A stretch of 64,000 nucleotides of DNA from Casimicrobiaceae bacterium (GTDB lineage Bacteria; Pseudomonadota; Gammaproteobacteria; Burkholderiales; Casimicrobiaceae): the NCBI GenBank assembly GCA_035470905.1, contig DATIQL010000159.1, positions 693 through 64,692 on the forward strand. The letters run 5' to 3'. Shown one piece after another: positions 1 to 21,671 of this stretch (positions are counted from its first letter, which is position 1; each line of letters starts with the position of its first letter). The translations under genes and the position numbers were made by a program. Under the pieces are notes generated by a model. It made no database searches and was not told where the DNA came from. It saw only the letters and a program-made list of their open reading frames with translations.

Positions 1-23
1 TGCGGCGCCAAGGGCGCAATGAC

Positions 24-137
24 GCCTAACCCATCGGTCGCGGCGAGGCCCAACGGCATGCGCCTGCGGGGCGCCAAGGTTTATCCTGCACTTCGCGCGC
101 CCACACCGTTGGTCCCGCTTCACCTCGAACGTTAGGC
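24..137 (+). repeat. attC recombination site (114 bp)
   Basis: GCCTAAC (24-30) and GTTAGGC (131-137) are exact inverse cores. 5' arm CCATCGGTCGCGGCGAGGCCCAACGGC, 3' arm GCTTCACCTCGAAC. The next ORF starts 17 nt downstream. Confidence 0.8.
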
Positions 138-153
138 AACGCCCGCCCCTTTC

Positions 154-708
154 ATGCAACTCGTTCGGCCGTCTGAGCGCCACTTGCCGAGCTACATCGC
201 GGCGCTGGAGCGCGGGTGGTCCGCGGACAATCTGCGCCCCGAAGCAGCGCAAGAAGAGCTTGCCCGTGTCCGGGCTGACGCCCAGGCGTTCATCGCCAGC
301 ATGGAGGATCGCCAAGCCAAGGGCCCGCCGCTCACTCTTCCGGACGGCTCCGTCGTCAATCGGCTTCCGGGCTTTCGGCGCTGGCTGTGGGACGGAGAGT
401 TCTGCGGAAGCATCGGCTTCCGGTGGCAGGAAGGAACAACGGAACTGCCGCCACACTGCCTCGGCCATATCGGCTATGCGGTCGTTCCCTGGAAGCAGAG
501 GCTTGGCTACGCCAAAGCGGCGCTGGCGCAGCTGCTACCAGAAGCCAAGTCCGTTGGACTGCCGTTCGTGGAGCTCACCACAGATCCAGAGAACCTGGCG
601 TCCCAGCGTGTCATCTTGGCCAACGCCGGCATTCTGGTAGAGCACTTCACCAAGCCACCGCAGTTTGGCGGCAAGCCAGGGCTGCGGTTTCGCATCGCGC
701 TGGCGTAG
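154..708 (+). CDS. GNAT family N-acetyltransferase
   Basis: 184-aa ORF with a GNAT core (HIGYAVVPWKQRLGYAKAAL, ASQRVILANAG). Confidence 0.8.
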   Translation: MQLVRPSERHLPSYIAALERGWSADNLRPEAAQEELARVRADAQAFIASMEDRQAKGPPLTLPDGSVVNRLPGFRRWLWDGEFCGSIGFRWQEGTTELPPHCLGHIGYAVVPWKQRLGYAKAALAQLLPEAKSVGLPFVELTTDPENLASQRVILANAGILVEHFTKPPQFGGKPGLRFRIALA

Positions 709-752
709 AGTAGACGCTGGGCGCCATTTAGTACCCTCAATACGCCGAACGC

Positions 753-1052
753 ATGTCTTTGTCTGTGCTCAACGGAGGGACCATGAGATTTAGTGCCACC
801 CTACTGGCTTTGACGCTTGGAGTGTTTTGGGGCGCGGCGATCCTCATCGTTGCCGTGGCAAATCTGATCTGGCCAAGCTACGGTCGCGCTTTCCTCGACT
901 TGGCCGCCTCCCTCTACCCTGGGTACCATCCTGGCTCTGGCCTGGTTTCGGTTATCACAGCCACGCTTTACGGTCTGGTAGATGGCGCAGTCGGTGGCGC
1001 TGTATTTGCCTGGTTATACAACTTCGTGGCACGCCGCCTCGGTGCAGCCTAA
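753..1052 (+). CDS. small membrane protein, unknown function
   Basis: 99 aa with two hydrophobic helices. Its stop lies inside an attC core. Confidence 0.5.
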   Translation: MSLSVLNGGTMRFSATLLALTLGVFWGAAILIVAVANLIWPSYGRAFLDLAASLYPGYHPGSGLVSVITATLYGLVDGAVGGAVFAWLYNFVARRLGAA

Positions 1053-1130
1053 CCTCTAGTCCAACCGGGCCGTGCCCCGCGGGCGTCCTTCTGCTCCCGC
1101 GGGTGCGGCCCGTTGACGCAGACGGTAGGT
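1047..1130 (+). repeat. attC recombination site (84 bp)
   Basis: GCCTAAC at 1047-1053 contains the TAA stop of the upstream ORF. Internal palindrome CGGGCCGTGCCCCGCGGG / CCCGCGGGTGCGGCCCG. 3' core is GGTAGGT (one mismatch to GTTRRRY). Confidence 0.6.
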
Positions 1131-1140
1131 CTCTCTCCGG

Positions 1141-1368
1141 ATGACCCCGCATCCCGCGTCATCGCAATTGGTTGGCTTGCCCGCGTGGCTGTTGGCTGCG
1201 TTGGCCGCAGGTGCAGTGGGGGCCGTCGCCTCCGATGATGCGGCATCGTTCTACGCACAGTTGAGCAAGCGGTCCGGGGCGCCGCCGGCTTGGGTGTTCG
1301 ATCCCGTGTGGTCGGCGCTGTACGCGCAAATGGGGTTGGCGCGGGGCATGGATCCTCGATCGACCTAA
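1141..1368 (+). pseudogene. TspO/MBR family protein, N-terminal fragment
   Basis: 75 aa containing the PPAWVFDPVWSALY motif typical of TspO helices 1-2. The family is normally about 150-160 aa. The ORF terminates at an attC. Confidence 0.5.
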
Positions 1369-1419
1369 CTTCGATTCGAGCGGACGCGATGAAGCGCGCC
1401 GCTCAACATCGCATTGGGT
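1363..1419 (+). repeat. attC recombination site (57 bp, classic 59-be size)
   Basis: ACCTAAC at 1363-1369 contains the stop codon. Palindrome GAGCGGACGCG..GCGCGCCGCTC. 3' end is CAACATCGCATTGGGT. Confidence 0.55.
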
Positions 1420-1440
1420 GTCTCGTCGGCCAGGAGTTGC

Positions 1441-2043
1441 ATGAGTACCAACCTGTCCCAGCTGCCAGCCGACCTGCCGAGGCCCGTTGACGACGGTGCC
1501 GCTGCGCATCTCGCGGGAGAGCTGCTGCCGCGCATTGCACTCCCGAGCACGGACGGTACAACCGTCAACCTGGCTGATCTGGCCGGCCGATGGGTGATCT
1601 ACATATATCCAATGACTGGGCGCCCCGACGTTGCCTTGCCTGACGGGTGGGATGGCATCCCTGGGGCACGAGGATGCACCCCTCAATCTTGCAGCTTTCG
1701 CGACCACTACAAGGAGCTCCAAGAGCTCGGAACTGGCGTATTCGGCCTCAGCGCCCAGGGCACGGACTATCAGCGTGAGGCCCGTGACCGTCTGCATCTG
1801 CCGTTTCAGTTGCTGAGCGATAGCTCGCTCCAATTGAAGAGTACGTTACGGTTGCCAACGTTTACCACCGCCGGCATGGAGTTGTTCAAGCGCCTCACGC
1901 TCATCGCCGGGCACGGGAAGATCAGGAAAGTCTTCTATCCGGTGTTTCCGCCCGATCGCAATGCCGATGAGGTCCTGGCATGGCTGCGAAAAGACTCCCA
2001 ACCCGGCGCTCCAGGGGGCGCGCCGCACGCGGCGCGGCCTTGA
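1441..2043 (+). CDS. peroxiredoxin (AhpC/TSA, Bcp-like)
   Basis: YIYPMTGRPD...GCTPQSCSF active-site region. ATG at 1441. Confidence 0.75.
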   Translation: MSTNLSQLPADLPRPVDDGAAAHLAGELLPRIALPSTDGTTVNLADLAGRWVIYIYPMTGRPDVALPDGWDGIPGARGCTPQSCSFRDHYKELQELGTGVFGLSAQGTDYQREARDRLHLPFQLLSDSSLQLKSTLRLPTFTTAGMELFKRLTLIAGHGKIRKVFYPVFPPDRNADEVLAWLRKDSQPGAPGGAPHAARP

Positions 2044-2058
2044 GCTTTCCCATCAGGC
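1996..2058 (+). repeat. possible degenerate attC
   Basis: 3' end CCCATCAGGC matches the ATCAGGC/GTCAGGC ends of other sites. The 5' core is only TCCCAAC, and the peroxiredoxin stop lies inside the site. Confidence 0.3.
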
Positions 2059-2092
2059 GTCGCAGGCACCAATCCAGGCCCATTCAGCGCAC

Positions 2093-2488
2093 ATGAACAT
2101 CCGAAGCGCTGCTTGCTCCTGCGGGCGACTCACGGCAACCGTCGCTGGAGAGCCGGTCAGAGTCTCCGTCTGTCATTGCCTTGCATGCCAGCAAAGAACC
2201 GGCAGCGTCTTCGGCGCCCAGGCGCGGTTCGCAGCAGAACAGGTTTCCTTCAGCGGCAAGGCAAGCGAGTACATCCGCGTGGGCGACGAAGGTTCACACG
2301 CACGGTTCCGCTTCTGCCCAAACTGCGGGTCCACGGTGTACTACACCGTCGAAGAACTGCCCGGCGTAGTGGTCATACCGGTCGGGGCTTTCGCCGAACC
2401 GACCTTTCCCGAGCCGACGTTCTCGGTGTACGAGGAGCGCATGCACCGGTGGGTCGGTCTTCCCGCAGGCATCGAGCATATGCCGTAA
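2093..2488 (+). CDS. GFA family (CENP-V/glutathione-dependent formaldehyde-activating-like) protein
   Basis: Zinc Cys motifs CSCG...CHCLACQ...CPNCGS. Confidence 0.85.
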   Translation: MNIRSAACSCGRLTATVAGEPVRVSVCHCLACQQRTGSVFGAQARFAAEQVSFSGKASEYIRVGDEGSHARFRFCPNCGSTVYYTVEELPGVVVIPVGAFAEPTFPEPTFSVYEERMHRWVGLPAGIEHMP

Positions 2489-2521
2489 TGCTGCGGGCGC
2501 CTGCGCGGCTCGAACGTTAGC
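2482..2521 (+). repeat. possible truncated attC
   Basis: Ends CTCGAACGTTAGCC, as in CTCGAACGTTAGGC of site 24-137. The 5' box GCCGTAAT contains the TAA stop. Only about 40 bp long. Confidence 0.35.
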
Positions 2522-3533
2522 CTTCGGAAAATCCATGCTCGATGTCGCTTCGCCCCGTCGAGTCGCAATCCCCGCCGGTGCGCTCATGGACATCGAGGTC
2601 GCAGCGTACGCAGCCTTGTCGTACCGGTGAAATCGTCGGCTCTCGCCGGCGGGCGGGAATTGTCATGGCGGCGACTCCTGCCACAACGCACACCAGACCG
2701 ATCACGCCGGTCGACGACAGGCTTTCCCCGAGAAAGAGAACGCCGATCGCCACGCCGAAAGGCACCCGCAAGTAGGCCTGAGCAGTGGTCCCAACTGGCC
2801 CGAGTGTCTGGACCAGTCGGAAGTAGATCAAGAACGCGAGCGCCGTGGAGAAAACCGAGAGGCCAAGCAACGCGAGGATCGACTGCCATGAAGGAGCCAA
2901 GGCCCAAGGTTGGTCGACCACGAGGCTGACGGGACCGAGGACGGCTGCACCGCAAATCATCGACCCCGCCGCCGGCATGATCGGCTCCAGGCCCTTGAAG
3001 TTCTTTCCGAAGATCGCCGCACCGGCATAGCATGCCGTCGCCGCGACAATTGCGAGCTGTGCCCGGACCTCTTGGCCGAAGCCGCCGAGCGCCTGAACGC
3101 CGACAACGAGACAAACGCCGGCAAGGCCGGCAACTACGCCAAAGAGTTTCCGGCCCGTAACGGGTTCATGGCGGGCGAAAACTGCGGTGAACAAGAAGGC
3201 GAAGATCGGCGAAGTGGAGTTGAGGACCGTCGCCAGGGCTGCATCGGTGGTCTGCTGAGCCCATGCGATGAGCGTGAAAGGAATCACACTGTTGAGACAC
3301 GCCTGAAAGAAGAACCGTCGCCACGTGGCCGCGTCGCTCGGGAGCGCAAGCCCTCGCCACAAGATCACGAGGGCCAATGCCGCGCCTGCGATCATCGTCC
3401 GCGCCGCGATCAGCGTCACGGGCGGGATGGTCTCAACCCCGACCTTGATGAAGCTGTATGAGGCTCCCCACAGCGCAGCGAGAGCCAGCAGCAGCGCGAG
3501 TTCCGTCGGTAGATTCACTTCTTTCGCTGACAT
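2517..3533 (-). CDS. DMT superfamily (EamA-like) transporter
   Basis: About 10 TM segments forming two EamA repeats. Start at MSAKEVN. Reverse orientation relative to the array. Confidence 0.8.
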   Translation of the reverse strand: MSAKEVNLPTELALLLALAALWGASYSFIKVGVETIPPVTLIAARTMIAGAALALVILWRGLALPSDAATWRRFFFQACLNSVIPFTLIAWAQQTTDAALATVLNSTSPIFAFLFTAVFARHEPVTGRKLFGVVAGLAGVCLVVGVQALGGFGQEVRAQLAIVAATACYAGAAIFGKNFKGLEPIMPAAGSMICGAAVLGPVSLVVDQPWALAPSWQSILALLGLSVFSTALAFLIYFRLVQTLGPVGTTAQAYLRVPFGVAIGVLFLGESLSSTGVIGLVCVVAGVAAMTIPARRREPTISPVRQGCVRCDLDVHERTGGDCDSTGRSDIEHGFSEG

Positions 3534-3636
3534 GGATCCCGATCTGCGGGGAGGAGCCCGAATGGCGATGCTATCGCGGGTCCGTTCGCAGATGGTTCGG
3601 TGTCGGCCGAATCGTGGCCGGACGCGGCACAACCAT

Positions 3637-3836
3637 GCCTGACCCCTCGGTCGAGCGGAGAGGATCTCCGGGCTCTCGGCGGAGTCACGATCAATCCCGG
3701 CGGACTTTCGGCCGGCCCAGCGCTGGCCGGGCCGGCAATCGCGGACTCGCGGTCAATTCGTGGGGACTCCCGGCAGGGTGCGCCGGCGCGGTTTTCGACA
3801 CCATTCGCCGGCACACCCTCACTTGAAACGGACCAA
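3637..3836 (+). repeat. possible long attC
   Basis: Starts GCCTGACCCCTCGGTCGAG (family A 5' arm). Candidate 3' end is CACTTGAAACGGACCAA. The 200-bp length is atypical. Confidence 0.35.
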
Positions 3837-3842
3837 CCAACC

Positions 3843-4046
3843 ATGGGCACCGAACCATCCGACACCGAAGCCGTCGTCCAGGCCCACCTGAAGGCGTTCG
3901 TCCGGCAGATGGGCGTCGAGGGCGAGGTCGCGTACATCACCTGGAGCGTCGGTGACTACGCGCCGCTCGGCATGGACACTTTCGTCGTGCGCAATGGAAA
4001 GATCGTGTCACAGACCTTCGCGATGCATCCGCCGGCGGCGGCATAG
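3843..4046 (+). CDS. short NTF2/SnoaL-like fragment or small protein
   Basis: 67 aa. AVVQAHLKAF...DTFVVRNGKIVSQTF resembles the N- and C-terminal ends of SnoaL-like proteins with the middle missing. Confidence 0.3.
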   Translation: MGTEPSDTEAVVQAHLKAFVRQMGVEGEVAYITWSVGDYAPLGMDTFVVRNGKIVSQTFAMHPPAAA

Positions 4047-4080
4047 CTTCGTCGCCGAGGCGGCCTCGATCCCGGACCAA
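4041..4080 (+). repeat. possible short attC remnant
   Basis: GCATAGC contains the stop codon. GCCGAGGCGGCCTCG is a palindrome. It ends GGACCAA, like the preceding site. Confidence 0.3.
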
Positions 4081-4090
4081 GGACCCCGCA

Positions 4091-4822
4091 ATGACTGCAA
4101 TCCTGACCTTTCTGTACGGCCTGATCGCATATGCCGTGGGTGTTGGCGCCCTGGCCTATTTCATTGGCTTCTGCGGCGACGTGCTCGTGCCGAAGTCGGT
4201 GGACAGCGGTACTGCAGGGACTCTGGCCGAAGCAGTGTGCATGGATGTGCTCCTGCTGAGCCTCTTCGCCCTGCAGCACAGCGCGATGGCGCGCCCGGCC
4301 TTCAAGCGCTGGTGGACGCGGATCGTCCCGCAGTCAGTGGAGCGAAGCACGTACCTGCTCGCGACCAGCGTCGTGCTCGGTGTTCTCATCTGGCAATGGC
4401 GGCCGATCCCGGCGCCGATCGTCTGGCGGATCGAAAATGGCGATGCCGTGCGGCTTCTGTGGACGGTGTTCGGCCTCGGATGGACGATGACGCTGGTCAG
4501 CACGTTCCTCATCAATCACTTCGAACTCTTCGGGCTGCAGCAGGTCTTCGCGCGCCTGACCGGACGCACGATTCCTGCGCCGGAGTTCAGGACGCCGCTC
4601 TTCTACCGGTACGTGCGCCACCCACTCTATCTCGGCATTCTGCTCAGCCTCTGGTCGGTGCCTGTGATGACGGCAGGACACCTGCTGTTGTCGACCGGGC
4701 TCAGTGGCTATATCGTCCTCGGTATCTGGTTCGAGGAGCGCGACCTCGTCGCGGCGTTCGGCGAGCGCTACCACCGCTATCGTGCGGAAGTCGGCATGCT
4801 GCTGCCGCGCCGGAGCCGGTGA
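4091..4822 (+). CDS. membrane methyltransferase family protein (ICMT/MddA/NnrU-like)
   Basis: Multi-TM protein with the C-terminal motif LFYRYVRHPLYLG...FEERDL...FGERY. Confidence 0.7.
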   Translation: MTAILTFLYGLIAYAVGVGALAYFIGFCGDVLVPKSVDSGTAGTLAEAVCMDVLLLSLFALQHSAMARPAFKRWWTRIVPQSVERSTYLLATSVVLGVLIWQWRPIPAPIVWRIENGDAVRLLWTVFGLGWTMTLVSTFLINHFELFGLQQVFARLTGRTIPAPEFRTPLFYRYVRHPLYLGILLSLWSVPVMTAGHLLLSTGLSGYIVLGIWFEERDLVAAFGERYHRYRAEVGMLLPRRSR

Positions 4823-4924
4823 TGATCCGTACCCCGGTGCGAGGCGACGGGTTCGCATCGCCCGGGACTGGGCGCGCAGGCGCCGCGCTCGGCCTGGCCG
4901 TCGGCCGCCTCGGAAGGGGCCGTC

Positions 4925-5233
4925 GTGCTTGAATTGAGACCAGCCTGCGAGCACTGCAACAAACCGCTGCCCCCCGATTCAGTCGAAGCGCGCATCTGCA
5001 GCTACGAGTGCACATTCTGTGCCGCTTGCGTCGACGCAGTACTGGGCAACGTGTGCCCAAATTGAGGCGGTGGCTTCGCGCCGAGGCCCATCCGGCCGTC
5101 GAGGAACTGGAAAGGCGACAACTATCTCGGCAAGGACCCGGCGACCACCAGGGTCAGGCACAGGCCCGTCGACCTGCAAGCCCATGCAGTGTTCGCGGCT
5201 GAAATCCGGTCGATTCCGCCCGGGCAGCGGTGA
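4925..5233 (+). pseudogene. DUF1272 zinc-ribbon protein with in-frame TGA at 5063-5065
   Basis: VLELRPACEHCNKPLPPDSVEARICSYECTFCAACVDAVLGNVCPN*GGGFAPRPIRP. Homologues read CPNCGGG, so the TGA replaces a Cys codon. Confidence 0.6.
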
Positions 5234-5299
5234 CTGTGCTGCAGTTCGTCCTGCTCGATCTGACGATGGCGCTGCTCGACGCCGTCTACGAGTTCCTGC

Positions 5300-5621
5300 T
5301 TGCGTGGCTTGCTTGCAGCGCTGGTCCGGCCTGAAGATACAAGCGCCGGGGCTGCGCACCTGTCCCAGCGCCTGCGGCCCGCAGGCTTCGTCGGCCTGGC
5401 GCCCTTGCTCGATCTCGTGGCAGCAGCCAGTGCGAACCTCGGGAATGGAGCCGTCCACGCCTTCCTGGGTGGCGCGCCCACCACGGTGCCCGAGCGCTAC
5501 CGCGTCGCCGCCGGCCGCGCTGCTTCCGCTGGGCGTCCGCCAATGGATACTGCATGGCGACGCAGATGACGCCGTTCCTCCGGCGCCGAGCAAATCGTAC
5601 GTCGCCCAGGGGGCCGCATGA
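5300..5621 (+). pseudogene. alpha/beta hydrolase, 3' remnant with frameshift
   Basis: One frame reads GLAPLLDLVAAASANLGNGAVHAFLGGAPTTVPERY. It continues in another frame as LLPLGVRQWILHGDADDAVP. There is no N-terminal half. Confidence 0.5.
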
Positions 5622-5682
5622 AGCGCGGCGTTGAGCATCGCTTTTGCAATGCGTCAGGCCACCAGAGGAAAAGGGGCTTCAT

Positions 5683-6012
5683 ATGCAGATGTCGTCAATC
5701 CCCTTCGGCACCACCGATTGGGCGAAGGTCGAGAGTACGGAACACAAGGGCGAGCGTGGCTCCGCCTGGTGGCGCACCCGGCAGTTCGGCGATGTTCGCG
5801 TCCGCATGGTCGAGTACTCGGCTGGTTACGAGGCAGATCATTGGTGCGCCAAGGGCCACATTCTTCTTTGTATCGACGGCGAGCTTCACACGGAGCTGCA
5901 AGACGGTCGCCTCTTCACACTTCGCCCGGGCATGAGCTATCAGGTTGCCGACAATGCGGAACCGCATCGCTCGTACACAAAGATCGGTGCGAAGCTGTTC
6001 ATCGTTGACTAG
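5683..6012 (+). CDS. DHCW-motif cupin fold protein
   Basis: MQMSSIPFGTTDW...GYEADHWCAKGHILLCIDGEL. Confidence 0.75.
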   Translation: MQMSSIPFGTTDWAKVESTEHKGERGSAWWRTRQFGDVRVRMVEYSAGYEADHWCAKGHILLCIDGELHTELQDGRLFTLRPGMSYQVADNAEPHRSYTKIGAKLFIVD

Positions 6013-6033
6013 TGCCGCAGCCTGGTCCTTCGT

Positions 6034-6147
6034 TCCACCCAATTCGCGGCAGCGGACCTCCACCGGCTTGGCTCGCGAGCCGCTGCGGGTCTATGCTCCG
6101 TCTCGCGGGCCGGGCCGGTTCCGGCCCGCTCAGCTCAAGCGTTAGGC
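6034..6147 (+). repeat. attC recombination site (114 bp)
   Basis: Ends GCTCAGCTCAAGCGTTAGGC (GTTAGGC at 6141-6147). The 5' arm TCCACCCAATTCGCGGCAGCGGAC resembles the TAACAATTCGTTCAAGCCGAC arm of classical aadA-type attC (quoted from memory). Confidence 0.65.
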
Positions 6148-14962: not shown

Positions 14963-14971
14963 GTGGCAGGC

Positions 14972-15946: not shown

Positions 15947-16086
15947 GGGGTTTCGGGCAAAAAGCGCGGAGGACCGGCCAACACGCGAGGCCCGGCGCCA
16001 CGGATAGTAGCAACCGCCTGCGGCACCGTTCCATTCGCGCCGCTTCGCAAGTCTTCCATCCACAGCCAACCGAAAGGATCAGCAGC

Positions 16087-16557
16087 ATGCAAGCCGTCAG
16101 CGAACTCTACTCCAACGATCACCCGCACAACGCAAAGGCCTACAAGGGCAGCTGTTTCTGCGGCGCAGTCCAGCTCACCGTCAGCGGCGAACCGGCTGCG
16201 ATGGGCTATTGCCACTGCGAGTCCTGCCGCAGCTGGTCAGCGGGGCCCGTCAACGCCTTCACCTTGTGGAAGCCCGAAGCGGTGCGCATCACGCGGGGGG
16301 CCGAGAACATCGGCACCTACAACAAGACGCCGCTCAGCTCTCGCAAGTGGTGCAAGACCTGCGGCGGCCACCTCTTCACCGAGCACCCCGGGATGGGGCT
16401 CATCGACGTGTACGCGGCGACCATTCCGGACTTCCCGTACCAGCCCGGCGTCCATGTCAACTATCAGGAGACGAAGCTGCGCATCAAGGACGGGCTGCCC
16501 AAGATGAAGGACGTGCCCGCGGACATGGGCGGCTCGGGCGTCGTCGTGGCGGAATAG
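16087..16557 (+). CDS. GFA family protein
   Basis: CFCG...CHCESCR...CKTCGG. Divergent from the AraC gene with a 140-nt gap. Confidence 0.85.
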   Translation: MQAVSELYSNDHPHNAKAYKGSCFCGAVQLTVSGEPAAMGYCHCESCRSWSAGPVNAFTLWKPEAVRITRGAENIGTYNKTPLSSRKWCKTCGGHLFTEHPGMGLIDVYAATIPDFPYQPGVHVNYQETKLRIKDGLPKMKDVPADMGGSGVVVAE

Positions 16558-16733
16558 CGCGTTCGGCCGTTCGGGCCGCGCGCCGCGCTTGGCGCCGGGA
16601 AAGCGGTGGCATAGACTGCACGCGGCCCGACGTCGGACTTCGGTGGGGACCGGCACGCTCGAACTGCGGCGGCGGGAAACCTTCGCTCCATGGCGGCACG
16701 AAGATCTCACCTCACCCTCCGGAGGGCAATACG

Positions 16734-17039
16734 ATGGCAAAAGGCTACTGGATCGTTCGCGTCGACATCCGGGACATGGACGCGTACAAGGCGTACATCG
16801 CCGCCAACGCTGATCCATTCAAGAAATACGGAGCAAAGTTCCTCGTGCGCGGCGGAAAGTACGTGAACCCCGAAGGCACCAGCCGTGAGCGCAACGCCGT
16901 GATCGAGTTCCCCAGCTACGAAAGTGCGGTGGAGTGCTGGCACTCGCCGGAGTACCAGGCGGCGCTTCGGCTTCGAGAGCCGGTATCCACGGCCGATCTG
17001 GTCATCGTGGAGGGCTACGACGGTCCGCAGCCTGGTTAG
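16734..17039 (+). CDS. DUF1330 domain protein
   Basis: MAKGYWIVRVDIRDMDAYKAY...VIEFPSYESAVECWHSPEYQ. Confidence 0.85.
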   Translation: MAKGYWIVRVDIRDMDAYKAYIAANADPFKKYGAKFLVRGGKYVNPEGTSRERNAVIEFPSYESAVECWHSPEYQAALRLREPVSTADLVIVEGYDGPQPG

Positions 17040-17118
17040 CGTGGCGCTCGAGCGGGTTTGCGCCCTCCGGCACCCGGCATTCCCACGAAGACGCGCCGCC
17101 TCACCTCGAGCGTCAGCC
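17030..17118 (+). repeat. probable attC
   Basis: Ends GCCTCACCTCGAGCGTCAGCC (family A 3' arm). The 5' box GCCTGGTTAGC contains the stop codon. Confidence 0.45.
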
Positions 17119-17134
17119 ACCCACTCCACGCCCC

Positions 17135-17542
17135 ATGATTTCCATCCGTGAGATCGATCATCTGGTCCTGCGCGTGATCGACCTCGATCGCATGCTTCGC
17201 TTCTACTGCGGAGTGCTCGGGTGCACGATCGAACGACGCCAGGACTCCATTGGGCTGGTTCAACTTCGCGCCGGACGCTCTCTGGTCGACCTTGTGCCAG
17301 TGAATGGTCGCCTCGGGAAGGCCGGTGGTGCGCCACCCGCCAAGGAAGGACGGAACCTCGATCATTTCTGCTTTCGCATCGAGCCGTTCGATGAAGCAGC
17401 CATCCGAAGCCAGCTCCGAGCGCACCAGGTGGAAGCTGGGCCGCTGGAATCCCGGAACGGAGCCGAAGGAGAAGGTCCGTCGATCTACATCTCGGACCCG
17501 GAGGGCAATGTCGTGGAGCTCAAGGGGCCGCCGAATGGCTGA
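17135..17542 (+). CDS. VOC family (glyoxalase) protein
   Basis: IDHLVLRVIDLDRMLRFY...YISDPEGNVVEL. Confidence 0.8.
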   Translation: MISIREIDHLVLRVIDLDRMLRFYCGVLGCTIERRQDSIGLVQLRAGRSLVDLVPVNGRLGKAGGAPPAKEGRNLDHFCFRIEPFDEAAIRSQLRAHQVEAGPLESRNGAEGEGPSIYISDPEGNVVELKGPPNG

Positions 17543-17582
17543 CCCCGCGTCGGAGGACGTGCCGCCGGCGCAAACGTCAGGC
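17537..17582 (+). repeat. short attC (46 bp)
   Basis: GGCTGAC (contains the stop) ... CAAACGTCAGGC. The two cores are near-perfect reverse complements. Confidence 0.5.
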
Positions 17583-17587
17583 CACGC

Positions 17588-18121
17588 GTGAGAGCGCTTC
17601 GGACGCCGCTCTGTGATCTCGAGCCGCAGGTCGCCGCGCACGCACATGAGATGTTCGTCGTTCTCGGTGACCCGGCCATCTACGAGTTCGAGAACGCTCC
17701 ACCTGAATCGGAAGCTTGGCTGGCGGAGCGCTACGCCCGGTTGGAGTCTCGTTGCTCGGTGGACGGAACGGAACGCTGGTTGAACTGGGTTGTTCGTCTG
17801 CGCACGGGCGAACTCTGTGGCTACGTCCAGGCGACGGTCCTGCCGTCTGGCGAAGCCTATGTTGCATACGAGCTCGCGAGCCGCCACTGGCGGCGGGGCC
17901 TCGGTAGCTGCGCCGTACGGGCGGTGCTGGCCGAACTCGCCTCCGGCTACGCCGTGCACACCTATCTCGCCGTGCTCAAGACCTGCAACTTTCGCTCGCT
18001 TGCGATGCTTCGGCATCTCGGCTTCACCGAGGCCCCCGAGGCTCGGGTTGGCGCATCCAGCATCGAGCCTGACGAGCTTCTCATGCACCTGCGCGCGCCA
18101 GGCAGTCGGAACGTGGCCTGA
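17588..18121 (+). CDS. GNAT family N-acetyltransferase
   Basis: GTG start. YELASRHWRRGLGSCAV...NFRSLAMLRHLGF. Confidence 0.75.
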   Translation: MRALRTPLCDLEPQVAAHAHEMFVVLGDPAIYEFENAPPESEAWLAERYARLESRCSVDGTERWLNWVVRLRTGELCGYVQATVLPSGEAYVAYELASRHWRRGLGSCAVRAVLAELASGYAVHTYLAVLKTCNFRSLAMLRHLGFTEAPEARVGASSIEPDELLMHLRAPGSRNVA

Positions 18122-18298
18122 CCCCTCGGTCCGGGCTCTGCCCGACGCCTTGGCGGCGTTCGCTACGCACCATGCGCTCCGCCCCGAACTCATGGCAAGA
18201 TTCACATCCAGTCCTCGGAATCCTCCGTGCGCCGGGCCGCAGGCGGCCGCCCCGGGCTTTCGGTCAACCGGACGCGCCGGCTGCCTCCGGCATCAGGC
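18116..18298 (+). repeat. attC recombination site (183 bp)
   Basis: GCCTGACCCCTCGGTCCGGGC 5' arm (contains the stop) ... CCTCCGGCATCAGGC 3' end. Confidence 0.6.
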
Positions 18299-18347
18299 GT
18301 CACCACACGTGGACCTCGACCAACCAGCATCGAAAGGCTGAACCGTC

Positions 18348-18794
18348 ATGCCCACCAACACCGTCCGACTCCACCGCGTGTTTCGAGCGCCCCCGGAAAG
18401 GGTCTATCGCGCGTTCCTCGACGCTGACGCAATGGCCAAGTGGCTTCCGCCGAACGGCTTCACCGGAAAGGTCCATCACCTGGACACCAGGGTCGGCGGC
18501 ACCTACAGGATGTCGTTCACGAACTTCACTACCGGCAACAGCCACTCCTTCGGCGGCGAGTACCTAGAATTGGTGCCGCACGAGCGCATCCGTCACACGG
18601 ACAGGTTCGACGACCCCAACCTGCCCGGAACGCTGCAGGTCACCGTGTCCTTCGCGAAGGTGTCCTGCGGGACCGAGCTGAGCGTAGTGCAGGAAGGGAT
18701 ACCCGACGTCATTCCCGTCGAAGCGTGCTATCTCGGCTGGCAAGAGTCGCTCGCACTGCTCGCCAAGCTGGTGGAGGCCGAAATTCCGGGTTGA
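18348..18794 (+). CDS. SRPBCC (AHSA1/Aha1-like) domain protein
   Basis: RVFRAPPERVYRAFLDADAMAKWLPP...GWQESL. Confidence 0.85.
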   Translation: MPTNTVRLHRVFRAPPERVYRAFLDADAMAKWLPPNGFTGKVHHLDTRVGGTYRMSFTNFTTGNSHSFGGEYLELVPHERIRHTDRFDDPNLPGTLQVTVSFAKVSCGTELSVVQEGIPDVIPVEACYLGWQESLALLAKLVEAEIPG

Positions 18795-18915
18795 CAGGCG
18801 CCACCCGACCCGTCGCTCGAGCCGACCCGCAGCGCCAGGACCGCTCCACGGCCGGACGGTCGTTGTCCGCTCCGATGCCCATGTCCTTGCGGGCGGCCCA
18901 GTTCCAGCGTTGGAT
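18789..18915 (+). repeat. attC recombination site (127 bp)
   Basis: GGTTGAC (contains the stop) ... CCCAGTTCCAGCGTTGGAT. GTTGGAT is a perfect GTTRRRY. Confidence 0.7.
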
Positions 18916-18939
18916 TCCCGGGAATACACTTCTCCATCC

Positions 18940-19449
18940 ATGAGCTCGACTACCCTCCTCCTCTCGCTGTTCAGATACAAGGCCTGGGCCAACGAGGCGT
19001 TGTTCGCCGAACTGGAGAAGCTCGATCCGGACGCCCACAAGTCCGAGCGCCACACTGTCATTCGCCTGCTCAACCATATCCACGTCGTCGATCGAATTTT
19101 TGCCGCCCATCTGGGAGGCACCGCGCATTCCTACGCGGCGACCAACACGCCGGAGACGCCGGGCCTCCAGGAGCTGCGGGGCGCGGTGGCGGAGACGGAC
19201 CGTTGGTACGTGCAGTACATCGAGAGATTGGCTCCCGCGCACCTGCACGAGACGGTCTCGTTCACGTTCACCGACGGGGCCAACGGCCGCATGTCGCGCG
19301 AGGAGATGCTGGCCCACGTCGCAACGCACGGCAGCTATCACCGGGGCGCGGTGGGACGCATAATGGCTCAGCTGTCGGTGGCGCCTCCGCGCGACATATT
19401 CACTGCCTATCTGCACCAGGCGGAGCCGGAGCGCCGTGAGCGAAACTAG
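18940..19449 (+). CDS. DinB family protein
   Basis: LFRYKAWANEALF...LNHIHVVDRIF...HGSYHRG. Confidence 0.8.
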   Translation: MSSTTLLLSLFRYKAWANEALFAELEKLDPDAHKSERHTVIRLLNHIHVVDRIFAAHLGGTAHSYAATNTPETPGLQELRGAVAETDRWYVQYIERLAPAHLHETVSFTFTDGANGRMSREEMLAHVATHGSYHRGAVGRIMAQLSVAPPRDIFTAYLHQAEPERRERN

Positions 19450-19512
19450 CCTCTCCACCGACAGGACCTTGCCCGGCAGGCCGGGTCGAGACTGTCATGT
19501 CCAACGTTGGGT
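19444..19512 (+). repeat. attC recombination site (60-69 bp)
   Basis: CTCCACCGACAGG...GTCATGTCCAACGTTGGGT. GTTGGGT (19506-19512) is a perfect GTTRRRY. Confidence 0.6.
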
Positions 19513-19582
19513 GTCACAGGAGGCATGGCGTCAGGAGAAGCACCGGTCATATCATCTTTCGTAGAGCTCGAGGAGATCAACC

Positions 19583-19894
19583 ATGATGGTCGCCCGTTGG
19601 AGCATCGATGCGAAGTTCGGATACAAGCAGGATGTGATCGACCTGATGCAGCGTTGGTTACGGGACATTGCGCCGCAGGTCGGAATCAGTGCGGACAAGA
19701 CGCGGTTGCTTACCGGCTCGATCGGCGCGCTGGAGGCAACCATCCAGTCGGAACATCTCGTCAAGGACCTCAGCGAGCTCGACCAGGTTTGGGCGAAACT
19801 GGCCACGATTCCAGCGCACAAGCAATGGAGCAAGGATCTCGAGCCCCATGTGGTTTCCGGAACAAGCCGCTGGGAGATCTTCCGCGTCGTGTGA
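19583..19894 (+). CDS. hypothetical protein
   Basis: 103-aa ORF just after attC 19444-19512. Lower GC than its neighbours. No family recognised. Confidence 0.5.
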   Translation: MMVARWSIDAKFGYKQDVIDLMQRWLRDIAPQVGISADKTRLLTGSIGALEATIQSEHLVKDLSELDQVWAKLATIPAHKQWSKDLEPHVVSGTSRWEIFRVV

Positions 19895-19927
19895 CTGCGA
19901 GGTGAACATTTGCCTGCTGGGACGACC

Positions 19928-20020
19928 GTAGCCCGCATCCGCGGCTTTCGCCGCTGGATGTGGGACTCCGGGTCCGTGGGGAGCATCGGCTTCCGGCCAG
20001 AAAGGAGCATCTCGTCGTGA
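19928..20020 (+). pseudogene. GNAT fragment, paralogue of the gene at 154-708
   Basis: IRGFRRWMWDSGSVGSIGFRPE aligns with PGFRRWLWDGEFCGSIGFRWQE of ORF 154-708. Only about 30 codons remain. Confidence 0.55.
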
Positions 20021-20484
20021 AATCACCCGAAGACGCAAAGCCGGAGAGCTGGCACCGCTTCTTTGGATCAACCGCGAACAACGCAGCTTGGGGCCTGGCG
20101 GAGCTGCCGGCCGACCGGGTCAGTCGAGGGGATCTGCTCGACGCTGCTCATGCCGCCGCATGGCACTGGCAGCAGATCGGCACCGAGCTCAATCGCATGC
20201 GTGCGGCCATGCTTCTCGCCGAGGCACACGCAAAGGCCGGCCTTGGAACCACCGCCCTGGCCTATGCGGAAGAAATGCGCTCTTATTTCCTCGCAACGCC
20301 CGGCACGCCTGACTGGGAGGTTGCTTTCACGCACGTCGTGCACGCCCACGCGGCGAGTGCGGCTGGTGCACGGGACCTGCACGCTCGCTCCTACGCGCAA
20401 GCGGTTCGAGCGGTCGCAGCCATCGCCGACGAGGGGGACCGGAGCGTGGTCCGGCGCGTCTTCCGGCACGTACCTTCCCCGTGA
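20017..20484 (+). CDS. hypothetical protein
   Basis: GTG start 9 nt after AAAGGAG. 155 aa, helical and Ala-rich. No family recognised. Confidence 0.45.
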   Translation: MKSPEDAKPESWHRFFGSTANNAAWGLAELPADRVSRGDLLDAAHAAAWHWQQIGTELNRMRAAMLLAEAHAKAGLGTTALAYAEEMRSYFLATPGTPDWEVAFTHVVHAHAASAAGARDLHARSYAQAVRAVAAIADEGDRSVVRRVFRHVPSP

Positions 20485-20522
20485 GGCAGGCGCCGTGGCA
20501 TGACGGGACGCAGGCCGCAGCC

Positions 20523-21107
20523 ATGACGCTCGTAGTCCACCCTCTCACGCCAGGTCGCTGGGACGATCTCGAGACGCTCTTCAATGCGAAAGGGTGCTCC
20601 GTCGCACGCGGCTGCTGGTGCATGTACTACCGCATCAGCGGCAAGGGCGCTTACACGCGTCCAGGCGACGACCAGCGCTCTCGCAGCAAGGAGGCGCTCA
20701 AGGCTCTCGCCGCGCACGACCCTCCGCCGGGCCTGCTTGGCTATCGAGGCAGGATCCCCGTCGGTTGGATTTCCCTGGGGCCCAGGGAAGACTACGCGAA
20801 GCTCGCGAAGTCGCCGACCATGAAACCGGTCGATGCCCGGCACGTCTGGTCCATAGTCTGCTTCGTCGTACCGTCGGAGTACCGCAAGCAGGGCGTCGCG
20901 AGGGAGCTCCTCGCCGGCGCGGTCGATTACGCCAAAAAGCGCGGCGTTCGACTGCTGGAAGCGTACCCGGTCGACAAACGCCAACCTTCCGCCCCGGAAG
21001 CACCATGGTTCGGCTCCAAGACCATGTTCGACGAGGCGGGCTTCACGGAGGTTGCCCGACGCAAGGCTGCCCGACCGGTTGTCCGCCTGAAGTTGATCCC
21101 CGGCTAG
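20523..21107 (+). CDS. GNAT family N-acetyltransferase
   Basis: CWCMYYR...FVVPSEYRKQGVARELLAGAVDYAKKRG...EAYP. Confidence 0.8.
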   Translation: MTLVVHPLTPGRWDDLETLFNAKGCSVARGCWCMYYRISGKGAYTRPGDDQRSRSKEALKALAAHDPPPGLLGYRGRIPVGWISLGPREDYAKLAKSPTMKPVDARHVWSIVCFVVPSEYRKQGVARELLAGAVDYAKKRGVRLLEAYPVDKRQPSAPEAPWFGSKTMFDEAGFTEVARRKAARPVVRLKLIPG

Positions 21108-21123
21108 CGCGCAGGCCCCCGGC

Positions 21124-21615
21124 ATGCTGCCTCGCGTCTCGAGCAACGCAACGCTGCGCCCCGCCACGCGGGCAGATGCGTCGCGGGTCGCGGGCCTCCT
21201 GATCGACACGCGGGCCGCGTTCATGCCCTACGCGGCTTCCGCGCATCCCGACGAAGCGCTTCGCGCGTGGGTTGCCAGCCACCTGGTCCCGTCAGGCGGC
21301 GTCACGGTCGCCGAGGTGCAAGGCAAGGTCGTCGGCGCCATGGCTACCGAGCGAGACGGTGCTGCCTCCTGGGTGACCCAAATGGCCGTCGATCCCGCTC
21401 TCGTTGGCCAAGGCATCGGCTCCTTGCTCCTCGCCCATGCGATGCGCACATTGGCGCTGCCCGTCCGCCTGTACACCTTCCAAGCCAATTTCGGCGCACG
21501 GCGGTTCTATGAAAGGCATGGGTTCGCCGCAATCGAGTTCACCGATGGCCAATCCAATGAAGAGAAATGCCCCGACGTCCTGTACGAGCTCCGCACTCCG
21601 GGAGATCGGGGCTGA
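21124..21615 (+). CDS. GNAT family N-acetyltransferase
   Basis: QMAVDPALVGQGIGSLLL...NFGARRFYERHGF. Confidence 0.8.
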   Translation: MLPRVSSNATLRPATRADASRVAGLLIDTRAAFMPYAASAHPDEALRAWVASHLVPSGGVTVAEVQGKVVGAMATERDGAASWVTQMAVDPALVGQGIGSLLLAHAMRTLALPVRLYTFQANFGARRFYERHGFAAIEFTDGQSNEEKCPDVLYELRTPGDRG

Positions 21616-21671
21616 GCCTTCCACCGAGGGCCCGCCGATCGGCAATTCACTTCGGCCGTCGCGAATCCGCC
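21610..21671 (+). repeat. possible attC
   Basis: GGCTGAG (contains the stop) then CCTTCCACCGAGGGC. Contains the palindrome GCCGATCGGC and ends CGCGAATCCGCC. No good GTTRRRY core. Confidence 0.35.

Follow-up and report, generated by a model that had tools for sequence, protein, structure and literature searches.

An integron gene cassette consists of one open reading frame (ORF), sometimes more, and an attC site. The hairpin formed by the bottom strand of this site comprises a paired R box and an L box, with a spacer left unpaired and two bases, G and T, bulging out. It is the substrate to which the integron integrase (IntI) binds, and cleavage takes place within the AAC/GTT triplet of R'. Excised cassettes are circles that reinsert at attI, beside intI and the Pc promoter, and therefore new cassettes enter at the integrase end while older ones are displaced away from it. 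Arrays with real attC sites and no adjoining integrase (CALINs) are common, and half of them are found in replicons without intI (Cury et al. 2016, PMC4889954). Integron integrases accept much sequence variation (PMC4889954), and Xanthomonas arrays eroded following the inactivation of intI (PMC12444791).

The window, i.e. the whole 64-kb stretch of DNA analysed here, carries in its left third small accessory genes with attC recombination sites 3' of them, most of which are decayed, and in its right part, from nt 38253 onward, ordinary chromosomal genes on both strands with higher GC. With a probability of roughly 0.85, nt 1 to about 19500 belong to a chromosomal integron gene-cassette array of a bacterium. 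This array probably reaches rightward to about nt 21700 and possibly persists as a fossil out to about nt 38000. GC content and the nearest relatives point weakly to a Burkholderiales-like betaproteobacterium, the genes compared being mobile.

Results

Gene content

A train of accessory genes on the plus strand, with two genes in reverse orientation, and its continuation lie to the left of the ordinary chromosomal genes:

154-21615, plus strand: 32 small accessory ORFs forming a co-oriented train (Pfam scans; GC3-based gene list)
2517-3533, minus strand: EamA transporter gene, reverse orientation (Pfam EamA, 126.8 bits), occupying the space between two attC relics
14972-15950, minus strand: AraC-family regulator gene, reverse orientation, with a GFA gene diverging from it (Pfam)
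21674-38200, plus strand: co-oriented accessory-gene train continued (Pfam: DUF5648, TMEM175-like, LanC-like, YjbR, five to six GNAT, L-PSP, EamA fragment, GST, HAD, LysE)

The ORFs of the first part of the train include GNAT (six), GFA (three), glyoxalase/VOC (three), methyltransferases and Redoxin, and also FMN reductase, DUF1801, DUF1330, AHSA1, DinB and AMP ligase (Pfam); TspO (1141-1368), DUF1272 (4925-5064), DUF4440 (10355-10651) and globin (10718-11020) are present as gene fragments. The strict co-orientation claimed in a preliminary description of this DNA is contradicted by the EamA and AraC genes, and the array end that it placed at about 21.7 kb needs qualification, since the accessory-gene train goes on without attC to about nt 38000. 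The AraC-family gene has a codon GC3 of 0.86-0.90, resembling host core genes. The segment 12000-16600 has few sites and host-like codon usage; it may be of non-cassette origin.

Covariance model and window-wide search

A training set (A1) of 53 non-redundant attC sites was assembled from loci of other genomes only, including two arrays (L050 and L055) adjoining a bona fide integron integrase. RNAalifold on A1 gave the R box, the L box, an 8-bp stem and both bulged bases (T and G); 12 of 17 pairs showed compensatory changes, and the AAC/GTT triplet was invariant (53/53). The covariance model built from A1 (R1) is geared to GC-rich attC of betaproteobacteria, giving the clinical-plasmid estX attC only 12.5 bits, and its E-values are rough. 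It returned 12 matches in the window at 16-65 bits (E from 1e-16 to 0.006), all in one orientation and all within nt 24-18915, so that the sites stand well above background under a model from other genomes; the maximum on either strand of nt 22000-64000 was 12.8 bits. At E<=10, 25 matches in attC orientation versus 6 in the opposite one were found in nt 1-21700, and 10 versus 14 in the remainder of the window. About ten relics at gene ends add to these 12 sites; nine to ten of the sites listed below score at background under R1 and were accepted mainly on position. A strict scan for RYYYAAC/GTTRRRY plus bulge was passed, among the window sites, by 24-137 alone, and a smooth fall of attC score with position within the window was not found. 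No attC was recognisable in 21674-38200 (R1 at most 9.1 bits in attC orientation), which may be the fully eroded tail of the array.

attC sites and relics

24-137, plus strand: best-preserved attC, R'' GCCTAAC, R' GTTAGGC, closing the upstream RibD_C cassette (R1 65.4 bits, E 5e-16); top-strand bulged C and A equal bottom-strand G and T; R box paired in the bottom-strand fold (z -2.7)
1047-1130, plus strand: attC after a small membrane ORF, R'' GCCTAAC with stop codon, R' decayed (GGTAGGT); 27.0 bits, fold z -3.0
1363-1419, plus strand: short attC after the TspO fragment, R'' ACCTAAC with stop codon, R' ATTGGGT; 22.9 bits, fold z -3.0
1996-2058, plus strand: weak attC overlapping the Redoxin gene 3' end, R' ATCAGGC; 16.3 bits, E 0.006-0.017
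2470-2522, plus strand: attC relic, 3' arm only (CTCGAACGTTAGCC; motif match, sequence read directly); 8.2 bits for 2397-2522; the minus-strand EamA gene takes its stop codon from the R' box GTTAGCC
3637-3835, plus strand: attC relic, 5' arm GCCTGAC-CCCTCGGTCGAGCGGA retained (motif match, sequence read directly), 3' end decayed
6037-6147, plus strand: attC, R' GTTAGGC intact, R'' decayed (ACCCAAT); 30.4 bits
6225-6287, plus strand: attC of CCTTCCATCGAGCGGAC type, R' GTTAGAA, R'' lost; 25.5 bits on model positions 7-106; closes an ORF-less 140-nt segment
7215-7246, plus strand: truncated 5' half of a methyltransferase-cassette attC (full site in the relative L002 at L002 12102-12179, 24.6 bits)
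7881-7949, plus strand: attC, R'' GCCCAAT, R' GCCAGGC; 31.5 bits, fold z -2.0
8432-8557, plus strand: attC, R'' GCCCAAC, R' GTCAGGC; 48.1 bits
9123-9280, plus strand: attC relic after the FMN reductase gene, 5' arm perfect (GCCCAAC-CCCTCGGTCGAGGCGA, motif match), 3' end decayed; 12.9 bits for 9123-9160
9769-9846, plus strand: attC, R'' GGCTGAC with stop codon, R' GCTAGGG; 31.3 bits
10292-10409, plus strand: attC, R'' GCCTGAG with stop codon, R' decayed; 29.1 bits
11037-11110, plus strand: possible weak attC relic, GCTCAAC box; 8.5 bits for 11039-11085, i.e. background; its position between two genes fits
11496-11587, plus strand: possible weak attC relic, R'' GCCTAAC with the stop codon of a SnoaL-like gene; 8.8 bits
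14900-14962, plus strand: attC within and past the DUF1801 gene end, R'' GCTCAAC, R' GTCGGTC; 22.5 bits
17033-17118, plus strand: attC relic, 3' arm CTCACCTCGAGCGTCAGCC retained (motif match 17105-17118); absent from the covariance-model list
17537-17582, plus strand: weak 46-nt attC relic, R'' GGCTGAC with stop codon, R' GTCAGGC; 9.8 bits, R boxes pair in the fold
18116-18298, plus strand: attC relic, R'' GCCTGAC with stop codon, then CCCTCGGTC, R' ATCAGGC (sequence read directly); 9.5 bits for 18249-18298
18803-18915, plus strand: attC, R'' ACCCGAC, R' GTTGGAT; 39.2 bits
19444-19512, plus strand: last recognisable attC, R' GTTGGGT, 5' side decayed, bulged T and G retained; 13.0 bits

The boxes quoted previously are all in place: GTTAGGC (131-137 and 6141-6147), GTTAGAA (6281-6287), GCCAGGC (7943-7949), GTCAGGC (8551-8557 and 17576-17582), GTTGGAT (18909-18915) and GTTGGGT (19506-19512), and the cores of site 24-137 are exactly complementary. 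Intact boxes are not the rule, and the array is far more degraded than had been implied: GTT is kept in R' at only 6 of 22 sites and relics, the others reading GTC, GCC, GCT, GGT, ATT or ATC or having lost the box. The stop codon of the upstream ORF lies within R'' at seven sites (1047, 1363, 9769, 10292, 11496, 17537 and 18116) and 1 nt ahead of it at two (24 and 9123), and the start codon of a following same-strand ORF is 3-70 nt away. A site after nearly every gene, as described earlier, is seen in nt 1-11600 and 17000-19500 but not in 11600-14900, 15000-17000 and 19500-21700, where four genes are without one.

Structure and covariation

R and L boxes and an unpaired spacer are seen in the window sites, together with a bottom-strand bulged G and T six bases apart, the extrahelical pair being retained in at least 9 of 12 sites. 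In their stems 86% of cells are paired versus 28-48% with partners slid; both sides have changed in 10 of 18 stem pairs, and the covariation score is 0.52 versus 0.23 in shuffles (matched by 0 of 500). The extrahelical bases and unpaired spacer, for which a check had been proposed, are present, as are covarying stems. Non-Watson-Crick stem cells amount to 24% in the window versus 3.5% in the training set, for which well-paired sites had been chosen. Hairpin energies in this GC-rich DNA ranged from z +0.7 to -3.0, mostly no better than shuffles.

Comparison with relatives

The closest relative, L002, has cassettes in common with the window in the same order, with other cassettes interposed: six blocks with identities of 83-96% and one more, at 71%, differently spaced. 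Left edges of these blocks coincide with R' boxes (GAACGTTAGGC, GTTAG and GCTAGG); in the blocks preceded by a recognisable attC (3 of 6), homology begins at R', as it does at R' of sites 6225-6287 and 9769-9846; at nt 7246, in the truncated methyltransferase-cassette attC, homology ends. Within 21674-38200 the blocks 23470-24040 and 27948-28462 are common to both, again at different spacing. Relatives differ by gain and loss of whole cassettes with junctions at R', and fixed synteny was not found. Contigs from ENA and Logan that represent the same population match the window collinearly at 99.9% identity and give no hint of current rearrangement. The GNAT gene is a cassette in circulation: among 156 homologous loci GTTRRRY occurs within 80 nt upstream in 62% (6.9% of random windows) and RYYYAAC at the stop codon in 31% (versus 3.5%).

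Upstream of the RibD_C-GNAT pair that it has in common with the window, L002 carries 13 attC of 49-82 bits within 10 kb, and from that pair onward, in the part homologous to the window, only sites of 19-42 bits. On one contig of another relative, locus L029 adjoins an intI fragment (median attC about 58 bits), and L033, 57-77 kb beyond it, has a median of about 49 bits, its second half being mostly at 20-41 with one site at 56; the array adjoining intI in this genome appears to span at least 77 kb.

The side upstream of nt 1

Neither intI nor attI nor Pc was found within the 64-kb window. The sequence covered to the left of nt 1 reaches 638 nt. Two loci (L001 and L167) contain the complete RibD_C cassette ending in attC 24-137; the array extends left of nt 1 by at least this one cassette. 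L050 and L055 encode full integron integrases (475.7 and 461.5 bits on TIGR02249, cut-off 265), divergent from textbook arrays that carry a homologue of the window's first cassette. The geometry predicted earlier is seen in two other genomes: a divergent integron integrase is followed, 3.5-6 kb downstream, by the same GNAT cassette.

Discussion

The earlier reading of a rightward-read cassette array with attC sites, and with intI to the left of nt 1 or else a CALIN, stood up to all tests run. Given the lack of intI in the window, the presence of one or more cassettes to the left of nt 1 and the 13 strong attC that L002 carries in the 10 kb upstream, the most likely reading is a large chromosomal integron of which the window is the eroded part remote from the promoter. 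The weaker attC of L002 and L033 and the share of non-Watson-Crick stem cells in the window speak for distal erosion. The window would represent the old end of the array, and intI, attI and Pc would lie to the left of nt 1, separated from it by no fewer than one cassette and probably by many others. Most of its cassettes would no longer be excisable, their attC being without the GTT triplet, without an arm or gone, and several ORFs would be decaying into pseudogenes, so that the array would fade into ordinary chromosome on its right side.

A less likely alternative is a CALIN, an orphan array whose intI was lost or from which it was split off by rearrangement, leaving stranded cassettes to decay. 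The absence of intI from 64 kb, the mutation of most R' triplets and the pseudogenisation of several ORFs would be expected after integrase loss, CALINs are frequent (half in replicons without intI; PMC4889954) and the Xanthomonas arrays eroded alike (PMC12444791). However, site 24-137, which comes first at the left edge, is intact (65 bits), the well-preserved, closely spaced attC of L002 upstream of the common cassettes suggest a live proximal array, and, since a related array beside intI apparently reaches at least 77 kb, 64 kb without intI is uninformative.

It is improbable that the array is fully functional, a normal silent reservoir and no fossil, in which the cognate integrase still accepts sites whose R' carries GTC, GCC or GCT. 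Stem pairing and bulged bases have for the most part been retained, some R-box changes yield bottom-strand G.T pairs, and integrases tolerate sequence variation (PMC4889954), but G.T, with 20 cells, is no more frequent than A.C with 15, so that selection for bottom-strand folding is not indicated, the triplet that is invariant in the training sites has changed at most sites of the window, entire arms are gone at 2470, 7215, 9123 and 3637, and ORFs are fragmented. L002 and the window moreover have the mutated GCTAGG junction in common, so this site was not renewed after the two lineages separated. That the sites are generic intergenic palindromes (REP-like repeats or transcription terminators) resembling attC by chance is very improbable and largely refuted: hairpins are common in a GC-rich genome, minimum free energy z-scores are unremarkable at most sites, loose arm motifs occur all over the window and no Rfam family confirms the sites, but matches are oriented and confined to 19 kb instead of scattered, bulges, spacer and covarying stems fit attC, T-runs are absent, L002 block junctions fall at R', and the sites are homologous to those flanking intI-adjacent cassettes in other genomes.

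The cassette array of the window is an ordinary example of a well-known system.

Covariance model and attC sites of the window

Relatives of the first cassette protein (a GNAT, 154-708) were sought in one genome per species, which gave 80 loci, and all loci were scanned for strict attC sites, the cassette recombination sites of the form R''-L''-loop-L'-R' (RYYYAAC...GTTRRRY; core complementarity of 6/7 or better; pairing of an L box, 6 bp and 2 bp, with two bulges). Of the sites that passed, 108 were on the cassette strand and 5 on the opposite one, and in 66 of them the bulged top-strand bases are C and A, i.e., G and T on the bottom strand. Fifty-three non-redundant sites were aligned as bottom strands (alignment A1), the window and its two closest relatives being left out. 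The consensus fold that RNAalifold derived from this alignment has an R box and an L box, a stem of 8 bp and, in columns 127 and 134, the bulged T and G; 12 of its 17 pairs show compensatory changes, and the core triplets AAC (R'') and GTT (R') are invariant in 53/53 training sites. A covariance model, R1, was built on A1 and run over the whole window with filters off. On a clinical plasmid it gave 56 bits to the aadA1 attC, which has a near-copy in the training set, and only 12.5 bits to the estX attC; R1 is therefore not a universal attC model. Two other criteria were set aside: the strict regular expression, which among the window sites only 24-137 passes and which is too strict for decayed sites, gave way to the covariance model, and hairpin free energy was dropped, being weak against shuffles in DNA of 64-75% GC (z +0.7 to -3.0, mostly no better than the shuffles). 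An Rfam scan of the whole window matched no family and no attC, which is uninformative either way.

R1 returned 12 matches, 11 of them at E<=3.4e-4 and the weakest at E 0.006-0.017, with scores of 16-65 bits and, in 12 of 12, the R'' box on the left of the plus strand.

Significant attC sites in the window, with R1 scores
24-137: attC, 65.4 bits
1047-1130: attC, 27.0 bits
1363-1419: attC, 22.9 bits
1996-2058: attC, 16.3 bits
6037-6147: attC, 30.4 bits
6225-6281: attC, 25.5 bits
7881-7949: attC, 31.5 bits
8432-8557: attC, 48.1 bits
9769-9846: attC, 31.3 bits
10292-10409: attC, 29.1 bits
14900-14962: attC, 22.5 bits
18803-18915: attC, 39.2 bits

At E<=10, nt 1-21700 holds 25 matches in attC orientation and 6 in the opposite one, an excess from which we estimate roughly 19 real sites or relics, whereas the rest of the window holds 10 and 14, respectively. 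The sites are imperfect R''-L''...L'-R' palindromes, with stems kept by compensatory changes, that lie on one strand, generally just past an ORF, in the kind of cluster (spacing of less than 4 kb) expected of a cassette array. Neighbouring significant sites are no more than 4 kb apart, the one exception being the 4.5 kb from 10409 to 14900, which weak relics bridge; weak relics aside, no recognisable site was found in 11600-14900 or 15000-17000, nor after 19512. At nine sites a stop codon lies inside or adjoins R''. In an alignment of the 12 sites that was fitted to the model, and hence favours it, 86.2% of stem cells are paired, and shifting the partners by 1-3 columns lowers this to 28-48%; changes on both sides are seen in 10 of 18 stem pairs, and the covariation score of 0.52 (0.23 in shuffles) was reached by none of 500 shuffles.

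The preliminary description had read nt 1-21671 as an integron gene-cassette array and had quoted core boxes, all of which were found in place, those of 24-137 being exactly complementary (GCCTAAC/GTTAGGC). It had also proposed looking for extrahelical bases and an unpaired central spacer; the bottom-strand hallmarks are such a spacer and an extrahelical G followed by a T six bases on (PMC8946536). These features are present: no fewer than 9 of the 12 sites have the bulged T and G where they are expected, and site 24-137 has, by the strict scan, the bulged top-strand C and A and a 5/6-nt spacer. Scores at background, which would have spoken against attC, were not obtained, since the 12 sites reach 16-65 bits and R1 found nothing above 12.8 bits in nt 22000-64000 on either strand. 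Confinement to the array in a single orientation argues against a scattered, generic REP.

Gene content of the array

The window has 63-67% GC in its left half, up to about nt 34000, and 67-74% from there onward. A GC3-guided ORF list and four Pfam scans gave 34 ORFs in nt 154-21615, 32 of them on the plus strand and coding for small accessory proteins.

Genes of the array (families by Pfam)
154-21615, plus strand: six GNAT acetyltransferases
154-21615, plus strand: three GFA, three glyoxalase/VOC and three methyltransferase genes
154-21615, plus strand: Redoxin, FMN reductase, cupin and SnoaL-like genes
154-21615, plus strand: DUF1801, DUF1330, AHSA1/SRPBCC, DinB and AMP-dependent ligase genes
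2517-3533, minus strand: EamA gene, reverse-oriented
14972-15950, minus strand: AraC gene, reverse-oriented
1141-1368: TspO fragment ORF
4925-5064: DUF1272 fragment ORF
10355-10651: DUF4440 fragment ORF
10718-11020: globin fragment ORF

The co-orientation, at first described as strict, is thus strong but has two exceptions, EamA and AraC. The stop codon of the EamA gene (TAA, minus strand) is supplied by GTTAGCC (2516-2522), which is the R' box of an attC relic, so that this ORF fills its cassette exactly to the crossover point. The DUF1272 ORF (in 4925-5682) ends early at a stop codon and is followed by about 600 nt without an intact ORF; no intact gene lies in nt 5065-5682, and we take the truncation and the gene-free stretch as a further sign of decay inside the array. 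No toxin-antitoxin cassettes were seen in the window, and two are apparent, from sequence alone, in L050, a relative's locus with a full integron integrase.

Between nt 12004 and 16557 the AMP ligase, DUF1801, AraC and third GFA genes have a codon GC3 of 0.85-0.90, like the core genes of nt 38000-64000, against 0.73-0.82 in the neighbouring cassettes, and attC sites are almost absent from the segment. Either material other than cassettes may have inserted into the array here, or the segment may consist of long-resident genes adapted to the host.

Cassette differences between the window and its relatives

The closest relative, L002, is a locus of an uncultured proteobacterium MAG whose GNAT gene has 97% amino-acid identity to that of the window. 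The two share discrete blocks in the same order at different spacing.

Blocks shared with L002 (window coordinates)
127-711: 96% nucleotide identity
6280-7246: 91% nucleotide identity
9838-10294: 90% nucleotide identity
18318-18837: 83% nucleotide identity
21145-21593: 71% nucleotide identity
23470-24040: 86% nucleotide identity
27948-28462: 86% nucleotide identity

The R' box is the joining point of cassettes in integrase-mediated exchange, and the left edges of the first three blocks lie exactly at the R' boxes 131, 6281 and 9840 (GAACGTTAGGC, GTTAG and GCTAGG). Four window cassettes between the methyltransferase and glyoxalase cassettes are absent from L002, and therefore synteny is not fixed. 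The comparison of cassette order that had been suggested as a check thus gave blocks in one order with different intervening cassettes and left junctions at R'; the identical, fixed synteny that would have counted against an integron was not found, as the two loci differ by whole, independent cassettes. On the time scale of the same-population contigs (ENA ERZ27272658 and Logan SRR9691026), which are 99.9-100% identical to and collinear with the window, nothing is moving.

Among 156 GNAT-homologous loci from genomes and metagenomes, GTTRRRY occurs within 80 nt upstream of the gene in 62% (6.9% of random windows), and RYYYAAC at its stop in 31% (3.5% of random windows); the GNAT gene is a circulating cassette. 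Two loci, L050 and L055, carry full integron integrases (475.7 and 461.5 bits on TIGR02249, cut-off 265), which lie 6 and 3.5 kb upstream of the GNAT homologue, respectively, and are divergent from it; L050 has the look of a textbook integron, in which each cassette is followed by a highly regular attC.

Two side observations concern the same genes. In the window (1-137, taken with L001 1-370) and in L002 (9684-9984) the RibD_C cassette is next to the GNAT cassette, with about 95% identity between the two genomes, and the interior of the attC between them is unrelated, with 114 nt of the type of locus L034 in the window and 60 nt in L002. A simple account would be a three-cassette ancestor whose middle cassette may have been lost in one lineage by R' x R' excision and in the other by deletion between the two R'' boxes. 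The GNAT family also occurs, at 72-79% amino-acid identity, in arrays of Verrucomicrobiota (L026, L042, L049 and L054; Udaeobacter/Chthoniobacterales MAGs) with their own attC subtype of about 123 nt and, as bulged top-strand base, a T in place of the C of betaproteobacterial sites, which suggests cassette sharing across phyla in soil.

Decay of the attC sites

The attC sites of the window are poorly preserved. The GTT of R' survives at six of them (R' ending at 137, 2522, 6147, 6287, 18915 and 19512), and the triplet reads GTC, GCC, GCT, GGT, ATT or ATC at the remaining ones, replacements which fit decayed attC rather than sites that never were attC. An arm has been lost at 2470-2522 and 9123-9280 and, by comparison with L002, also at 7215-7246. 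Stem cells that are not Watson-Crick amount to 24%; the figure is 3.5% in the training set, whose sites had been chosen for good pairing. Selection for bottom-strand pairing through G.T wobbles in the R boxes was considered and rejected: G.T cells (20) are no commoner than A.C cells (15), so the pattern reads as neutral erosion without bias, and the stem changes look like unselected transitions, not upkeep of the folded strand.

Integrase and the upstream side

The preliminary description had expected intI left of nt 1. In the window, tblastn with IntI1 and the L050 IntI gave nothing better than E 0.39, and a search for an intI pseudogene at E up to 10 gave nothing credible. The set that makes a complete integron (a TIGR02249/intI_Cterm integrase, usually divergent and at the attI-proximal end, the insertion site attI and the promoter Pc) is absent from the window and present in L050 and L055. 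The orientation of the sites would place intI left of nt 1, as in those two loci. Public contigs reach 638 nt left of nt 1 and add a RibD_C-type cassette, which is complete and has its stop codon right at attC 24-137; the ENA contig begins 4 nt before the start codon of this cassette, and a contig search with the GNAT gene returned a 2.8-kb Logan contig. A genome-contig scan for the upstream side of the window's own strain gave relatives only (best 97% amino-acid identity), no identical strain was found in the metagenome scan, and a search with RibD_C homologues for upstream DNA yielded unrelated contexts only.

The relatives indicate what might lie there. The 10 kb upstream of the RibD_C-GNAT pair in L002 hold 13 attC sites of 49-82 bits at a spacing of about 600 bp and are without intI; in the window-homologous part, which starts with the GNAT cassette, the scores fall to 19-42 bits. 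The loci L029 and L033 lie on one contig (CAWFYA010000004.1, 1554531-1575082 and 1611586-1632137), each with a GNAT homologue in an attC array of the same orientation. L029 begins at an intI fragment and has an attC median near 58 bits; L033, 57-77 kb further along, has a median near 49 bits, its second half being mostly at 20-41 with one site at 56. If the 36 kb between them are continuous, this is an array of at least 77 kb with well over 60 attC sites, and lengths above 77 kb would occur in this group. Integrase-distal array ends erode in this group, and the window fits the pattern, with one good site followed by decayed ones.

The right end of the array and its possible tail

The last 5'-arm-like fragment lies at nt 21671, the right limit proposed at first; no recognisable attC follows 19512, and a plus-strand train of small accessory genes runs on to about nt 38000.

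Genes of the possible tail and beyond
21700-38000, plus strand: DUF5648, TMEM175-like, LanC-like, YjbR, five or six GNATs, L-PSP
21700-38000, plus strand: EamA fragment, GST, HAD, LysE
38253 onward, both strands: ordinary chromosomal genes, among them a GGDEF-EAL sensor, carbonic anhydrase, ABC transporter, Lhr helicase, rhomboid protease and M4 peptidase

The housekeeping-type genes at nt 38000-64000 support a chromosomal context. Just past the last attC relic, 21674-23149 encodes a protein of about 490 aa with a C-terminal DUF5648, putatively secreted, and 24427-25734 a stand-alone LanC-like protein; both ORFs exceed typical cassette size. In attC orientation R1 found nothing above 9.1 bits in the stretch from there to about nt 38000, of which two blocks are common to the window and L002 at different spacing. 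In cultured and uncultured Burkholderiales (L053, Caenimonas terrae KACC 13365; L080; L076) the window's GNATs, AHSA1, glyoxalase, L-PSP and GST are clustered near the GNAT homologue in another order, several genes of the possible tail being among them, and R1 found in these loci and in L071 only marginal attC matches of at most 17.6 bits. Such attC-free trains of the same gene families, which adjoin the GNAT gene in cultured relatives such as C. terrae, may be fully fossilised arrays, and it is plausible that nt 21700-38000 is a fully eroded array tail. A bolder reading, to which we give somewhat less than even odds, is that the window catches a live array turning into ordinary chromosome, in which attC sites lose first the triplet, then an arm, and then vanish, what remains being the 37-kb one-directional gene train, which can no longer be recognised as an integron. 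If so, Burkholderiales would regularly fix horizontally acquired genes through the distal fossilisation of cassette arrays, and software that relies on attC would systematically miss fossilised arrays.

Mechanism, significance and comparison with known systems

IntI reads attC as a folded bottom strand, by its bulged bases and unpaired spacer, and cleaves in the R' triplet; cassettes leave as circles and re-enter at attI under Pc (PMC8946536, PMC4889954). For the window the attC anatomy, the confinement to the array, the single orientation, the cassette-wise differences and the occurrence of the same cassettes with intI elsewhere are established. The stretch would represent the old, promoter-distal end of an array, in which most cassettes probably depend on their own signals for transcription, could no longer be excised and may be turning into fixed genes or pseudogenes.

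The locus adds one large chromosomal cassette array, with the usual small cassettes of detoxification and acetyltransferase type, from an uncultured soil or freshwater betaproteobacterium, and leaves the knowledge of the integron mechanism unchanged. Beyond this its value is modest, that of a worked example of array ageing, seen also in two independent relatives: distal cassettes keep their order, attC sites gain unbiased transitions and deletions, and ORFs break. This bears on how long silent cassettes remain mobilisable and on the number of former cassettes hidden in genomes as ordinary-looking genes. Only the distal-erosion pattern and the possible former array in the 37-kb gene train are of wider interest.

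The attC architecture is the same as in cassettes of class 1 mobile integrons (e.g., the aadA1 attC), and the 3' arms (...CTCAAGCGTTAGGC, ...GTCAAGCGTTAGAA) resemble what we take to be the aadA1-type 3' end. The window differs in lacking resistance genes, intI1 and a Tn402/sul1 context, and its sites are longer (57-199 nt vs 60 nt) and GC-rich. As a separate observation, a chromosomal environmental array (L003 9323-9382; Piscinibacter MAG NZ_JASGKT010000002.1) contains an attC 98% identical to that of aadA1, with related 60-nt sites in L018 (15623-15683) and L077 (4035-4094). The aadA1 attC is present in 2,518 plasmids and stands directly after aadA1 in NZ_CP041112.1, while the ORF before the L003 site encodes a 138-aa protein, cupin-like by eye and not aadA, so that this attC with a different gene may bear on the origin of the recombination site of the aadA cassette.

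Chromosomal integrons of Xanthomonas with inactivated intI are similar in that the arrays are eroded, the cassettes fixed, and cassettes and sites gradually lost. As far as PMC12444791 relays Gillings et al. 2005, array content there differs between lineages and is stable within them, and the erosion goes with an intI next to ilvD that is visibly broken. The erosion in the window looks positional, at the distal end, and not global, because the closest relative, L002, keeps a well-preserved proximal array.

A CALIN is defined as at least two attC sites with no intI nearby, within 4 kb, or 10 kb in a wider test, and averages about five sites (Cury et al. 2016, PMC4889954). The window resembles one in having at least two attC on one strand less than about 4 kb apart, no intI nearby in view and few cassettes related to clinical resistance cassettes. 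It differs in the 12-22 sites in view, with more upstream, and in that the array runs on to the left end of the window and of all public contigs found. For this genome we put a complete integron at roughly 0.6-0.7 and consider a CALIN the less likely case.

Sedentary chromosomal integrons (SCIs), such as the Vibrio cholerae superintegron and the large environmental arrays of Betaproteobacteria, are defined by more than 19 attC sites or by presence in all genomes of a species (Cury et al. 2016, PMC4889954); with 12 significant sites and about 10 relics the window alone stays below 19 on the significant count, and its array continues upstream. It departs from SCIs in having no intI, attI or Pc in view and attC of several sequence types, most of them mutated in the cleavage triplet, and from the Vibrio model in that these sites are heterogeneous and decayed. 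It shares with SCIs the chromosomal location, the many small, mostly co-oriented cassettes of accessory or unknown function (GNAT, VOC/glyoxalase, DinB, DUF families), each closed by an attC of R''-L''...L'-R' structure with its bulged G and T, a cassette content that varies between relatives and an array of tens of kb. The array in the window probably belongs with the sedentary-type chromosomal cassette arrays that IntegronFinder catalogues, a known type that will not surprise the specialist.
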